The notes under the pieces are model-generated. The model was given only the letters and a program-made list of their open reading frames with translations, was not told the DNA's origin and did not search any database. A program made the translations under genes and the position numbers. Source: a virus (taxonomy: Duplodnaviria; Heunggongvirae; Uroviricota; Caudoviricetes). Taken from it: 16,137 nucleotides of DNA. Below are positions 4,824 through 8,916 of the stretch, piece by piece. The stretch's first letter is position 1, and the number at the start of each line of letters is the position of its first letter. The DNA lies in the IMG/VR virus record IMGVR_UViG_2671180543_000010. The stretch is one strand, 5' to 3'.

Positions 4824-5247
4824 ACATCCAGTTATTGCGGTTAGCAGCCCGTTCTTCCTCTTCACGAAATCCACCTGCGGCACGCTTGCTTTTTGTTGCC
4901 GGATCAAGCCATTTCGTTTTCTGGTTATGACACGCCTGGCACAATGGTTGATGGTTCCATTCGGGCCAGAAGAGAACATCATCACCGCCATTAATCGGGA
5001 TAATGTGATCCACCACCACGGCGGGCGTATATATCCCCTTCTCAAGGCATCGCACGCATAACGGGTTTTTACTCAGATACATGGCGCGGTATTTGTCCCA
5101 CTGTCTGGAATATCCACGCGCGCGGCGGTGTCCTCGTCTGGCATCCTCTGCACGCCATGCCGCCCGCCTGTGCTCCTCACACTTGCCGGATTTAACGCGC
5201 CTGTTACAGCCTGGTTCTGTGCATCGTCTTAATGGTTGCCACGGCAT
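4807..5247 (-). CDS. HNH endonuclease (terminase-associated, HK97 gp74-like), 146 aa
   Basis: Cys-rich N-terminus (CTEPGCNRRV...C), core VVDHIIPINGGDD...N...LCQACHNQKT; GGGGGGG Shine-Dalgarno 5 nt upstream; start overlaps stop of the upstream gene. Confidence 0.88.
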   Translation of the reverse strand: MPWQPLRRCTEPGCNRRVKSGKCEEHRRAAWRAEDARRGHRRARGYSRQWDKYRAMYLSKNPLCVRCLEKGIYTPAVVVDHIIPINGGDDVLFWPEWNHQPLCQACHNQKTKWLDPATKSKRAAGGFREEEERAANRNNWMYDADE

Positions 5248-5602
5248 CAGTACCCCCCCACATCACGGTAAGCCGTCCAGAGTGCGCCTATCGTCATGGG
5301 TACGCGTGTTTTTGCGTTATCCGCGACAATCTGGCGATTTTCATACAGGTGAGCGATAAACATCATGCAGCCAATCTTTATGGCTGGGGGGGACGCCACC
5401 CNNNNNNNNNNNNNNNNNNNNNNNNNNNNNNNNNNNNNNNNNNNNNNNNNNNNNNNNNNNNNNNNNNNNNNNNNNNNNNNNNNNNNNNNNNNNNNNNNNN
5501 NNNNNNNNNNNNNNNNNNNNNNNNNNNNNNNNNNNNNTCATCGTCGCCATCGATGCGGCAATGGAGTTTCACTTCTTCCAGGGTGATAAGTTCTTCTGTC
5601 AT
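5247..5602 (-). CDS. gp6-like head-tail connector protein (Phage_connect_1), interrupted by N-gap
   Basis: N-terminus MTEELITLEEVKLHCRIDGDD matches the gp6-family signature; after the gap a third frame stays open for 51 codons and its TGA overlaps the HNH ATG. Frame through the gap is unknown. Confidence 0.6.
5402..5537. other. Assembly gap (136 N) inside the connector gene
   Basis: Run of N in sequence. Confidence 1.
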
Positions 5603-5937
5603 TTTTCCGCGCCCTCACGACAAAGAATTTCAAGGCGTGTCCTGGCGGCATCCGGCAGCGGCTGCCCGATGATATTCAGTACACGCCCCGCCAGCGGCCC
5701 CGTACTGACCTTTATCCGGCTGGTGGCGTTGATGTCCTTCCGGTACCGTATCCAGATCCTTACGGTACCAATCGCCAGCTCTGCGCCCGATGAAATGGCC
5801 TCCTTGCTGCTGACCATGTTCACGCTTGCCCAGAGTGTGTGACCGTCCTCCCACGTTTCGAGTATTTCGCCGGTTATATCCCTGGTCTGTTTCAGGGTCT
5901 GAATCGTTATCCTGTCACGCAGTCGCCCTATGTTCAT
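5599..5937 (-). CDS. Head-tail joining / head closure protein (Phage_H_T_join, SPP1 gp16-like), about 112 aa
   Basis: Motifs MNIGRLRDRITIQ, W..WASV, IRYRKDI, RLEILCRE; start chosen at internal Met whose ATG overlaps the portal stop (ATGA); track ORF extends to 5979. Confidence 0.8.
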   Translation of the reverse strand: MNIGRLRDRITIQTLKQTRDITGEILETWEDGHTLWASVNMVSSKEAISSGAELAIGTVRIWIRYRKDINATSRIKVSTGPLAGRVLNIIGQPLPDAARTRLEILCREGAEK

Positions 5938-7145
5938 TCCGGTTTTTCTCCCTCGCTGATTTTTACTTCCTGTTTCCATGCCTGGCTGAACTCATCACCA
6001 CCATCACGCGGTGACAGCCCTTCACGTTCGCGGGCTTCGTTCGGACACATAACGTCGGATTTTATGCCGCGCTCATAGGTGGCAAAGCGTTCGCCAGGTG
6101 TGGCCCGTAACAGGTCCGCGCTGTCAAACTCCACCTGATACCGGATACCAGGTACAGGCGAGGCCACCAGCAAGGCGTTTTTTATCTGCTGCTCAAAGTT
6201 CGCCAGCCACGGGCGCATCGTCATGGTGAGAAATGCGCGGCTTGCCTCGCTGAAGTTGCTGTAGGTGCTGTTGCTGTATTCCTGCAAAAAAATCGGCGAG
6301 ACGTTGAACATTCGGGCGATGTCTTCAATGGTGAAGCGACGGGAGGCCAGCCATTCGGCATCCTGATTACTCATGCCCAGCTGCTGATAGCTCATCCCCC
6401 CTTCAAGGATGGGCGTTTTTCCGGCGTTTCTGGCCCCTTTGTAGCGTTCCAGTGCGGCTAATGCCTGTTTGCCCCTCACGCCGTCCAGCCATTCGCCTGA
6501 CGTGATAACCCCTGCCGCCATCATGCCATCACGCATCACGCTCGCGCCGTGGCGTTGTTGGGCCAGCCCAAGCCCCAGCGATTCGCGGCAGATGGTTACA
6601 GGTGAGCGCCCCATAAAACCGTCATCCGTGGAGTAACGAAGGTGGAGAACCTCCCACGGTAAATAGTTGCGGATGTTTCCGGTGTAGGCGTCAGTGATGC
6701 AGTAGCGCCAGTTATGATCACCTGTCTGCTCCACGTTCACCGACTGCGGCGGGTAAGGATGTAAAGCCGCCGGAAAACCATCACGCCCCCACTGAATAAC
6801 CGCATAAGCATTACCACTTAACAGGCAGTAGCGGATCATCATTCGCTTAAACTGGTAGGGTGTCTGCCACGCGTTCGGGCGCTCGTTGAGGATGTGATCG
6901 ACCGGATGAGAATCAAGCCATTCGCGGGCCTCCTTCCCCTTCTCATTGCGTACCAGGTACAGGTAACACGGCATGGTAGCCACCGCGTCAGAGATGACCG
7001 TGACGGCGTTCATGACGGCGGGGAGTGATTCCGCTGTCCCAGATGATACGTACTCACCCGCCCCCGTGTTCGATGTGCCGGCCAGCGCCATAAATTCATC
7101 AAGCGTCATGCTGCGCTGCTCTTTTTTTCGTCTGAAAGGCCACAT
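5934..7145 (-). CDS. Portal protein, HK97 family, 403 aa
   Basis: Motifs CLLSGNAYAVIQ and TIEDIARMFNVSPIFL typical of Phage_portal; GGGGGTG Shine-Dalgarno; sits between protease and head-closure genes. Confidence 0.9.
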   Translation of the reverse strand: MWPFRRKKEQRSMTLDEFMALAGTSNTGAGEYVSSGTAESLPAVMNAVTVISDAVATMPCYLYLVRNEKGKEAREWLDSHPVDHILNERPNAWQTPYQFKRMMIRYCLLSGNAYAVIQWGRDGFPAALHPYPPQSVNVEQTGDHNWRYCITDAYTGNIRNYLPWEVLHLRYSTDDGFMGRSPVTICRESLGLGLAQQRHGASVMRDGMMAAGVITSGEWLDGVRGKQALAALERYKGARNAGKTPILEGGMSYQQLGMSNQDAEWLASRRFTIEDIARMFNVSPIFLQEYSNSTYSNFSEASRAFLTMTMRPWLANFEQQIKNALLVASPVPGIRYQVEFDSADLLRATPGERFATYERGIKSDVMCPNEAREREGLSPRDGGDEFSQAWKQEVKISEGEKPE

Positions 7146-7146
7146 A

Positions 7147-7704
7147 TCACACCCCCGCTAAATCCGCCCACCAGCGGCGATTATCCGCACGCGGCATTTT
7201 TTCGGGGTGCTGCTCATACAGGGAACGGCGGGCCAGCTCCACGCCGGAATCGGGGTAAGCCGGTACCGATGTAACGGTAATTTCGTACAGTTCCGCCACC
7301 AGCACGGTGCGCACGCATGGATCTGTTGTGGTATCCCATACATCCTTACGGGAGCGAAAGCCAAAGCTCATCCCCGAGATGTCCCCACGCTTAACCAGTT
7401 CGATAACGTCGCGCCCTGTACTGGTATCCGGTGGGGTCAGTTCAAAGCGTAACCCTGTTTCGTCCTCTTCCAGTTTCAGCGTGCCGGAACGGGTGCGCCC
7501 CAGTAACATGCTGTGGTCATGCTCATACAGGCCGCGAACGTCATTACCCGCCGCAAGCCATTCAGTAAACGCCCCCCGCTGGAATTTTTCGTAAAACTCA
7601 CCCCATAACAGTTCTGAAAGCTTATCCCAGCGAACAACGTAGCCCGTCAGCGTACCGGCTCCGCTGGTGGTGATTTCCGATGACCGGATTTCCATACTCT
7701 TCAT
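7147..7704 (-). CDS. Prohead maturation protease, HK97 family (peptidase S78/U35), about 185 aa
   Basis: Motifs LYEHD, GDISGMSFGF, LYEITVTSVPAYP; start set at the Met preceded by GGTGA (track ORF begins 5 codons earlier at 7719). Confidence 0.85.
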   Translation of the reverse strand: MKSMEIRSSEITTSGAGTLTGYVVRWDKLSELLWGEFYEKFQRGAFTEWLAAGNDVRGLYEHDHSMLLGRTRSGTLKLEEDETGLRFELTPPDTSTGRDVIELVKRGDISGMSFGFRSRKDVWDTTTDPCVRTVLVAELYEITVTSVPAYPDSGVELARRSLYEQHPEKMPRADNRRWWADLAGV

Positions 7705-7717
7705 AATTTTTTCACCC

Positions 7718-7748
7718 ATAAAACACTAAAGGGGCTTTTTAGCCCCTT
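7718..7748 (-). terminator. Intrinsic terminator-like hairpin (AAGGGGCT-TTTT-AGCCCCTT then U-rich) between capsid and protease genes
   Basis: 8-bp GC-rich stem and 4-nt loop followed on the minus strand by TTTAGTGTTTT; likely partial terminator setting capsid:protease/portal ratio. Confidence 0.55.
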
Positions 7749-7758
7749 CTGTATGCTG

Positions 7759-8916
7759 TTAATCGTCGTCTTCCGGCAGTGCCAGAATCTTGATCGCGTT
7801 CGAATCCACCACGCCACCGCCTAAATATTTTTGCGTGAAAATTTTGATGAATCCTGGTTCTGTCAGGTTGTCCGGTCTGGTGCGAACACCTGTTTCGTGA
7901 TCAACAATGTAGTAACCGCGTTTGAAGTCACCCAGGGCAATAACGTTATCAGGCATAAACTCCAGATATTCGACCGGAAGGCCCAGCAACGTATCAGGAT
8001 CACCCGCCTGTAAACGGTCGCGCCAGATATAATCACCGTTCGCGTTCTTCACCTTCTGAAGTTTTGCCGCCGTCGTGGAGTTAACCACTCAGACCGCGTT
8101 TTTGCGGTATTTTTTACGTAATGCAAATTTCAGGTCGATCAGCGGGTCCGCAGATGTCCACGCCAGAGATTCGGAAGGTTTAATTACCTGCAACGTACCA
8201 AAATCACGCTCTTTGTCGTTCTTCTCTGCACGGGGTACGGATAAAAAACCTTTTGCTTTTTTGTCACCGTCGCCCACAACCAGATCGCTTTCTTCGGTTT
8301 CCGTGAAGGTGTCGCCAATCTCACCCGTCAGCCATGAAAGGATGTCCACATCGGAAAAATCCACGATTTCCTGTGTGGTGCGCGGGTACGCATAGACCGG
8401 ATACAGCTTAATGCTCACCTCGTTAATCTGCGGGGTGCTGGTCTGTTCGCGTGCCTTACCCTCTTCACCGTGGTTAACGGTCGCACCGCCAGCGGAAACA
8501 AGCTGCTTAAACTCGTTGCTGCTGATTTTCTTCACGGTACAGATGCGACGCATGGTGGATTCATCCGCCAGCATTCGCATGATTTCGGTGTTCAGTTCAG
8601 GGATAACGGTATAACCACCATCAGCGGGAACGCCTGTACTTAATGCGCGGGTTTCACCGGTCAGAATGTAGTTACGTAGTTCTGCGGGGTCAGTGGTCTG
8701 GCTGCTTTTACCTGGCTTGCTGCGCTCTTCGTCTGCAATGGCTTCAAGGCGGGAAATGTCTTTATCGAGGGATTCAGCTTTAGCGCGTAATTCGTCAAAT
8801 TTTGCGCCCTCAGCATCGTTAAGACTGCGGTTTTCTTTTTCAGCGTTCTCCAGCATGTCGCGCATCTGATTTTTAATGGCGGTTTTCTGCTGGCGTAATT
8901 CGATTATTCTCTGCAT
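7759..8916 (-). pseudogene. HK97-family major capsid protein, single reading frame interrupted by in-frame TGA at 8089..8091 (fragments of about 275 and 109 aa)
   Basis: Track ORFs 8089..8964 and 7759..8088 are contiguous in the same frame; N-terminal coiled-coil delta-like domain and C-terminal LLGLPVEYLEF/GYYIVD core typical of HK97 MCP; start at internal Met with AGGA upstream. Confidence 0.8.

Follow-up and report, generated by a model that had tools for sequence, protein, structure and literature searches.

A hairpin carried with the capsid gene in the head-and-packaging operon of an EcCIEDL933-type capsid-forming island

EcCIEDL933 of E. coli O157:H7 EDL933 is the prototype capsid-forming phage-inducible chromosomal island (cf-PICI), and published experiments demonstrated that it builds its own functional small capsids, which are transferred with helper-phage tails (Alqurainy et al., bioRxiv 10.1101/2022.09.08.507074). 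According to the same paper, proteobacterial cf-PICIs share a conserved layout, in which capsid-protease-portal-head connectors are followed by hnh-terS-terL (bioRxiv 10.1101/2022.09.08.507074). Phage HK97 arranges homologous families in the order TerS, TerL, portal, protease, capsid, hairpin, head-tail adaptor (Ad1) and head closure (Hc1), and shares with the islands the requirement for an HNH protein. Transcription of the late operon in HK97-type phages is carried out by an antiterminated polymerase. In T7, the gene for the major capsid protein is followed by the terminator T-phi. In T7-like phages, exemplified by LUZ100, a terminator placed directly 3' of this gene has likewise been described as an expression device (PMC10134795).

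Here we analysed a window of 16,137 nucleotides (IMG/VR record IMGVR_UViG_2671180543_000010), and sequence comparison identified the region under study as the head-and-packaging operon of an EcCIEDL933-type cf-PICI. The island spans from ~2250 to the integrase at 16137, a length of ~14 kb that falls within the ~10-15 kb of cf-PICIs, and adjoins phoQ in the same insertion neighbourhood as EcCIEDL933, in a host genome that is Shigella flexneri-like. It has a tyrosine integrase at one end (16137..14908; PF00589 plus an arm-binding domain), the regulator AlpA (14533..14345; PF05930) and a PICI-type primase of the D5 type (12371..10623), and EDL933 is annotated with the same layout. The ORFs scanned in the island, including a subset of the small ones, encode head, packaging, replication, regulatory or unknown small proteins, and none of them matched a tail or lysis family. 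The packaging module shares 96-98% DNA identity with that of EcCIEDL933 and has the same genes in the same order, whereas the replication and accessory region of the window is mosaic, with ~9560-12010 mostly unmatched except for a 241-nt piece at 10056-10296. A further difference is that two stretches of the window are masked by N. An Rfam scan of the whole window gave no family at the gathering score.

The genes of the module, all on the minus strand, were identified with Pfam and PHROGs. The major capsid protein of the HK97 fold (8916..7759; PF05065) is a homologue of EcCIEDL933 gene 1786, with 98.4% amino acid identity, and the intact EDL933 homologue matches phrog_10. It is followed by an S78 prohead serine protease (7719..7147; PF04586), of which the true start is likely ATG 7704, preceded by GGGTGA at 7717..7712, as homologues start at the position aligning with M6. 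The portal (7145..5934; PF04860, E = 1.4e-87; phrog_12), a head closure protein similar to HK97 gp7 (Hc1; 5937..5599, extent from tblastn; PF05521, phrog_25) and a gp6-like head-tail adaptor (Ad1; 5602..5247) come next. The middle of the adaptor is masked by the N run 5402..5537 and the start codon region of TerS by the N run 4549..4603, so that both were judged via their homologues in EDL933 and in the S. flexneri locus L004; the C-terminal 46 residues of the adaptor match the EDL933 protein, which in turn matches PF05135 and phrog_40. Downstream lie an HNH endonuclease that serves as packaging accessory (5247..4807; PF01844, phrog_144), a conserved 60-residue ORF of unknown function (4823..4641; phrog_3173) with 100% amino acid identity to its EDL933 counterpart, TerS of the P27 family (~4554..4198, from tblastn extent and start-region alignment; PF05119) and TerL (4214..2553; PF03354 and PF20441, phrog_9). 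Counting on from the capsid as gene 1786, the 60-residue ORF is probably the hypothetical gene 1792 of the cf-PICI paper. After TerL, another conserved ORF of 93 residues and unknown function (2539..2258; phrog_1561) shares 93.5% amino acid identity with EDL933. Besides the spacer between capsid and protease, the only other spacer within the module precedes TerS. A scan of 7750-8900 for sigma-70-like promoters on the minus strand found none, and thus no internal protease promoter was seen.

The resulting order is capsid, protease, portal, head closure, head-tail adaptor, HNH, 60-residue ORF, TerS and TerL, which agrees with the order given by the initial annotation apart from the added ORF; homology searches reassigned none of the genes towards a canonical order. 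The canonical order that had been used for comparison (TerS, TerL, portal, protease, capsid, adaptor, closure) is correct as well and is seen in HK97, ST64B, YeP1 and VW-6S. Compared to these four, the window departs from the head-module order, with tail genes, of canonical HK97-like prophages, and distant relatives of its protease also lie in the canonical TerL-portal-protease-capsid order. Among the matches listed in a phage collection, HK97 not being one of them, the island capsid shares at most ~40% identity with phage capsids. By contrast, the window order recurs in all 80 IMG/VR relatives and all 89 related loci that we collected, and is common to EcCIEDL933, divergent E. coli islands, and Haemophilus, Pasteurella and Klebsiella-type elements. 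It is the normal layout of proteobacterial cf-PICIs and needs no new explanation. The proposal that the arrangement is a signature of the satellite family is therefore correct but already known, as the cf-PICI paper states the order; as for its second half, that the locus is not a decayed prophage, synteny with EcCIEDL933 and the 89 loci upholds the arrangement, but this individual copy is decaying, as shown by the nonsense codon in its capsid gene.

Alignment with EDL933 revealed that an in-frame TGA (8091..8089, minus strand) replaces a tryptophan codon TGG in the capsid gene of the window. PF05065 matches both halves of the interrupted gene, at profile positions 1-166 and 169-278, respectively. 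Within the same 15-nt stretch, 34 other loci have TGG, and TGA occurs in the window and L004 of S. flexneri only; the TGA allele has no exact match in IMG/VR. The near-identical L004 (S. flexneri SFBU1023) has in addition a ~100-nt deletion that removes the start of TerS. Unless the TGA is read through, a full-length capsid protein could not be produced from the window copy, which is probably defective as a satellite. The nonsense codon is relevant to annotation, and this Shigella copy should be left out of any count of functional satellites. The initial annotation had overlooked the TGA, the 60-residue ORF and both N runs (4549-4603 and 5402-5537).

The GC-rich hairpin with a U run reported after the capsid gene is indeed present, although its U tract is interrupted. 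The hairpin (7749..7728, minus strand; GAAGGGGCU-AAAA-AGCCCCUUU) begins 9 nt past the capsid TAA (7761..7759), and consists of a 9-bp stem, in which five pairs are G-C, and a 4-nt loop. The U-rich tail AGUGUUUUAU follows directly at its 3' side (7727..7718). The last G-C pair is followed by UUUAGUGUUUUAU, with seven U in the first 11 nt when the three stem-closing U are counted, and the tract is broken as UUU AGUG UUUU. A 61-nt segment folds at -17.6 kcal/mol (z = -3.0 against shuffles), and, across the whole window, only one other perfect hairpin of the coding strand is more stable. In EcCIEDL933 the hairpin is identical except for one loop base.

Further analysis of the 89 cf-PICI-type loci, which comprise 34 distinct sequences downstream of the capsid gene, revealed a hairpin 3-12 nt past the capsid stop in all 34. 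The folding energies range from -11 to -20 kcal/mol in 33 variants, the remaining one being L067 (-6.7), in which 1 nt of the stem is deleted. Some stems are unrelated in sequence, as the GGGGCU/AGCCCC of the window compares with GGAGGAGGC/GCCUCCUUU in L003, CAAGCGGUA.../...UACCGCUUG in L005 and GGGGGCUAA/UUAGCCC in L034. Most variants share the core stem GGGGC/GCCCC, and strict covariation support is accordingly thin. We discarded an RNAalifold covariation analysis of 16 spacer variants, because the loops and stems vary in length, which shifted the alignment register and made the pair counts meaningless; conservation here refers to hairpin detection in each sequence and carries no formal claim of covariation. 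The U tract comprises U7 in L005, UUUUUUGUU in L034 and CCCCUUUCUGCCC (UUUCUGCCC) in L033, and is short or interrupted in many relatives. The succession of hairpin, U-rich tract, ribosome-binding site and ATG is kept tight, and where an extra gene lies between hairpin and protease (L081 and L088), the hairpin remains with the capsid gene.

A similar element is present in phages of canonical order. In HK97, the capsid stop is immediately followed by a GC-rich hairpin and a short U run, and the RefSeq record of this phage annotates a putative terminator at 5192..5213, directly after the capsid gene 5. GC-rich hairpins also follow the capsid genes of ST64B, YeP1 and VW-6S, with almost no U run after the strong hairpins of VW-6S and ST64B, and six of 22 distant loci of canonical order have one. 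Judged from these sequences, the hairpin accompanies the capsid gene as an inheritance of HK97 type and is not tied to the rearranged order; since it is frequent after the capsid in canonical-order phages too, it is uninformative on the rearrangement. Its neighbours differ, however, because in HK97 it parts the head genes from the connector and tail genes, whereas in the window the protease, the portal and all packaging genes lie downstream of it.

We propose that, in this EcCIEDL933-type operon, the inherited hairpin acts as a weak terminator, a 3' stabiliser or both and thereby leads to an excess of capsid mRNA, a reading that we regard as reasonably probable. The hairpin and its U-rich tail belong to the capsid 3' end, derived from HK97-like head modules, and the capsid-first layout places them ahead of all other genes of the operon. 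There, the hairpin would most likely be a weak intrinsic terminator, an element that stabilises capsid mRNA at its 3' end, or both; in either role, capsid mRNA would exceed the mRNA of protease, portal, connectors and terminase. It is plausible that such a leaky terminator or stabiliser raises the capsid over the downstream products, and the excess would match the need of a T=4 head, in which ~235 capsid subunits face 12 portal subunits. An efficient terminator is excluded, as published functional data show that satellite transfer requires all genes that lie beyond the hairpin. Termination may even be very weak or absent, given that the U tract is interrupted in the window and short in many relatives. 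A functional parallel is the hairpin terminator just 3' of the most abundant structural gene in T7 (T-phi) and LUZ100, which is read as raising capsid expression over that of downstream genes; full-text literature searches on post-capsid terminators turned up this T7-like case and nothing informative on HK97-like phages. The T7-like systems differ in relying on a phage-encoded RNA polymerase and on a promoter dedicated to the capsid gene, and their sequences are unrelated; moreover, the function was measured there, whereas we infer it for the window.

Alternatively, the hairpin might not terminate at all. After cleavage of the polycistronic RNA, a 3' stem-loop could shield the capsid message from 3'-to-5' exonucleases, such that it outlasts the downstream part. 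This explanation accommodates the interrupted or short U tracts of many variants, the phage hairpins that almost lack a U run and the essential role of all downstream genes in transfer, and HK97-type hairpins cannot rely on termination anyway, given the antiterminated polymerase. However, several cf-PICI variants possess textbook terminator tails, as in L005 and L034, and we identified no Q-type antiterminator in the island, which makes a purely stabilising hairpin rather unlikely, if still worth consideration. Compared to this, we find it improbable that the hairpin has no role in expression, either as a passive relic carried with the capsid gene or as a recombination boundary between capsid and protease. 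Recombination at the spacer is indicated by L071 and L072, where the capsid is 69% and the protease 95% identical to EDL933, and L002 shows 74% for the capsid, 61% for the protease and 80% for the portal. Nevertheless, a relic should decay, yet the hairpin is stable in 33 of the 34 variants, including lineages with 56-65% capsid identity and replaced stems, and the tight layout of the spacer also speaks against a relic.

The notion that decay scrambled an HK97-like prophage, leaving the whole region as a remnant with an odd gene order, could draw on the lesions that do exist, namely the nonsense codon in the window capsid and the TerS deletion in L004. Both the comparisons and the published functional data refute it, and we give it almost no credence. 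The order is intact in hundreds of E. coli genomes, as 401 of 5426 cover at least 80% of the region, and is found across genera; functional small capsids were demonstrated experimentally; and the island has int, alpA and primase genes and no room for tail or lysis genes.

A second hairpin, in the leader, abuts the capsid ATG (8953..8924, followed by U7 at 8923..8917; minus strand). Taken alone it is weak (z = -1.9), and stem-preserving variants occur in L038 and L071. Together with the post-capsid hairpin, it raises the conjecture that the capsid-first order itself is an adaptation to dosage control, in which two regulated termination points bracket the capsid gene (8953..8917 and post-capsid) and set the timing of the operon as well as a capsid:portal ratio of ~20:1. 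The argument would be that, without a Q-antiterminated polymerase, the capsid gene would have to come first for the inherited hairpin to work as a leaky attenuator; we consider this extension doubtful. AlpA as a processive antiterminator, like AlpA of P. aeruginosa, which would affect how far the hairpins are read through, was also considered and dropped, because a search of the island AlpA against solved structures gave only the AlpA-family phage regulator 8c3t and no other AlpA-named chain at E <= 1.

Altogether, what is added here to the known gene order is a hairpin between capsid and protease in every cf-PICI examined, an element common to canonical HK97-like phages. EcCIEDL933 and its helper phage HK106 constitute a genetic system suited to testing attenuation. 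If the hairpin is attenuating, it would provide a simple mechanism for capsid excess in a satellite that builds heads with only nine genes.

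The genes of the packaging region, identified by Pfam and PHROGs searches and delimited by tblastn, all lie on the minus strand. In coding order, they encode the major capsid protein (8916..7759, PF05065), the prohead protease (7719..7147, PF04586), the portal (7145..5934, PF04860), the head closure protein Hc1 (5937..5599, PF05521), the gp6-like head-tail adaptor Ad1 (5602..5247, PF05135, on the unmasked EDL933 homologue), an HNH endonuclease (5247..4807, PF01844), a conserved 60-aa ORF of unknown function (4823..4641, phrog_3173), the small terminase TerS (about 4554..4198, PF05119), the large terminase TerL (4214..2553, PF03354 and PF20441) and a conserved 93-aa ORF of unknown function (2539..2258, phrog_1561). 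These identities and extents bear out the head-gene order proposed in the initial annotation. Two N runs mask the TerS start (4549-4603) and the central part of the adaptor gene (5402-5537). The latter measures 136 nt, compared to 76 nt for the matching stretch of L004, the Shigella flexneri SFBU1023 copy, so here the window differs from that genome by more than masking. The protease ATG at 7719, the start in the matching RefSeq annotation, sits inside a U tract without a ribosome-binding site. Protease homologues begin at a position aligning with ATG 7704; a GGGTGA lies ahead of this ATG, which is the more likely start.

Apart from the N runs, the window has the same or almost the same sequence as S. 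flexneri SFBU1023. The island adjoins phoQ (1..1461), which is exactly where the prototype capsid-forming PICI (cf-PICI), EcCIEDL933, is inserted in E. coli O157:H7 EDL933; the two packaging modules share 96-98% DNA identity. Other genes on the island encode an integrase, a D5-type primase and the regulator AlpA (PF05930). Of 5426 complete E. coli genomes, 401 cover 80% or more of the region used as query. Just upstream of the packaging operon, a 74-aa ORF (9441..9217, minus strand) without a Pfam match sits between two identical 18-nt hairpins (AGCCGGAGCAAUCCGGCU, 9543..9560 and 9180..9197, minus strand), each followed by a T run, an arrangement that looks like a moron-like cassette.

The capsid-first order is not new, as it has already been published for EcCIEDL933 and the cf-PICI family; the packaging modules of EcCIEDL933 and its helper phage “have different genetic organisations” (bioRxiv 10.1101/2022.09.08.507074). 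The same order was found in 80 of 80 IMG/VR relatives, two divergent E. coli island types, Haemophilus genomes and two “phage” records of 15-16.5 kb, vB_KppS-Ant and Pasteurella Pmp8, which are plainly cf-PICI-like. By contrast, HK97, ST64B, YeP1 and VW-6S display the canonical order of TerS, TerL, portal, protease, capsid, Ad1 and Hc1, and remoter protease relatives reside in a canonical TerL-portal-protease-capsid order. No circular permutation of the canonical order yields that of the cf-PICIs: both in the trio of portal, protease and capsid and in the pair of Ad1 and Hc1, the genes follow one another in the opposite order while keeping their orientation. The published layout and our comparison of loci agree, and the earlier proposal of a family signature is correct. 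The two “phage” records (LR881103.1 and OR544139.1, respectively) possess the cf-PICI gene set and order without a tail module; the 2.3-kb gene after TerL in vB_KppS-Ant is labelled as a tape measure protein, probably wrongly. The linear vB_KppS-Ant record begins 22 nt ahead of TerS, which suggests a cos site between the small ORF and TerS.

Despite the family layout, the copy in the window is itself undergoing decay. An in-frame TGA at 8091..8089 (minus strand), missed by the initial annotation, breaks the capsid reading frame; the codon is TGG (Trp) in EDL933 and in 34 further loci that contain this 15-nt stretch. The TGA is present only in the window and SFBU1023, and the allele has no exact match in IMG/VR. 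Moreover, the near-identical SFBU1023 copy, compared to EDL933, lacks ~100 nt including the TerS start codon (L004 9040..9070; window 4537..4603) between short GC-rich direct repeats, a segment that also includes the spacer in which the cos site probably lies. The window has an N run of different length at this place.

The GC-rich hairpin with a U-rich tail reported after the capsid gene was confirmed by folding and by a terminator pattern scan. The hairpin GAAGGGGCU-AAAA-AGCCCCUUU (7749..7728, minus strand) lies 9 nt past the capsid TAA (7761..7759), and is followed by AGUGUUUUAU down to 7718, an SD-like GGGTGA (7717..7712) and the ATG at 7704. The 61-nt post-capsid segment folds at -17.6 kcal/mol (z = -3.0). 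Of all perfect hairpins that the coding strand of the window (16 kb) can form, it ranks second in stability, and it is among the three strongest terminator-like matches. The plus strand has no T run after it, indicating that the hairpin is oriented with the operon.

Among 89 cf-PICI-type loci, whose sequences past the capsid stop fall into 34 distinct versions, all have such a hairpin, beginning 3-12 nt from the stop codon, with energies of -11 to -20 kcal/mol and the sole exception of L067 (-6.7), which has a 1-nt stem deletion. Most share a GGGGC/GCCCC core with varying loops and stem extensions; stems unlike that of the window are found in L003 (GGAGGAGGC/GCCUCCUUU), L005 (16 bp, AU-rich, then U7) and Pmp8 (GGGGGCUAA/UUAGCCC, then U6). 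In two IMG/VR cf-PICIs (L081 and L088), hairpin and protease are separated by an additional ORF of ~600 nt, possibly of the homing-endonuclease type, and the hairpin remains beside the capsid gene. Discordant identities to EDL933 for capsid and protease, 69% versus 95% in L071 and L072 and 74% versus 61% in L002, map recombination junctions to the capsid-protease spacer.

Canonical phages carry the hairpin as well. In the RefSeq record of HK97, a “putative terminator” (5192..5213) is marked directly past capsid gene 5. A GC-rich hairpin occupies the same place in ST64B, YeP1 and VW-6S, and a hairpin of -15 kcal/mol or better does so in six of 22 distant canonical-order loci. This shared occurrence indicates that the hairpin is part of the capsid gene 3′ end, inherited with the gene. 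It is neither a product nor a marker of the rearrangement but a generic HK97-type feature.

A further hairpin, GUCCUGGAG...CCCCAGGAC plus U7 (8917..8953, minus strand), abuts the capsid ATG (8916). All capsid transcripts must cross it, and its 3′ arm holds the only SD-like AGGA. It is weak alone (z = -1.9); L038 and L071 show stem-preserving changes, and in Klebsiella-type cf-PICIs another hairpin (GGUUUC...GAAACC), with no U run, lies 5 nt ahead of the ATG.

Single-gene mutations throughout the EcCIEDL933 module abolished transfer, bar one hypothetical gene with very poor transfer (bioRxiv 10.1101/2022.09.08.507074), and a promoter scan found no promoter-like site between hairpin and protease. 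As all the downstream genes are needed and the spacer is too short for a promoter, polymerase must presumably read through the hairpin in a substantial share of cases. The U tract, interrupted in the window and short in many relatives, is consistent with a weak terminator, and a terminator directly past the major capsid gene is a described device of T7-like phages (PMC10134795). A T=4 head takes about 235 capsid subunits versus 12 portal subunits, and a partial stop at the hairpin would provide capsid message in the required excess. Alternatively, a 3′ stem-loop stabilizing the capsid segment after processing would yield the same excess; the hairpin may act in either way or in both. Behind it, HK97 has the connector and tail genes, whereas the satellite has the protease, portal, connectors and all of the packaging machinery. 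Altogether, the post-capsid hairpin is real and conserved, and plausibly plays a regulatory role.
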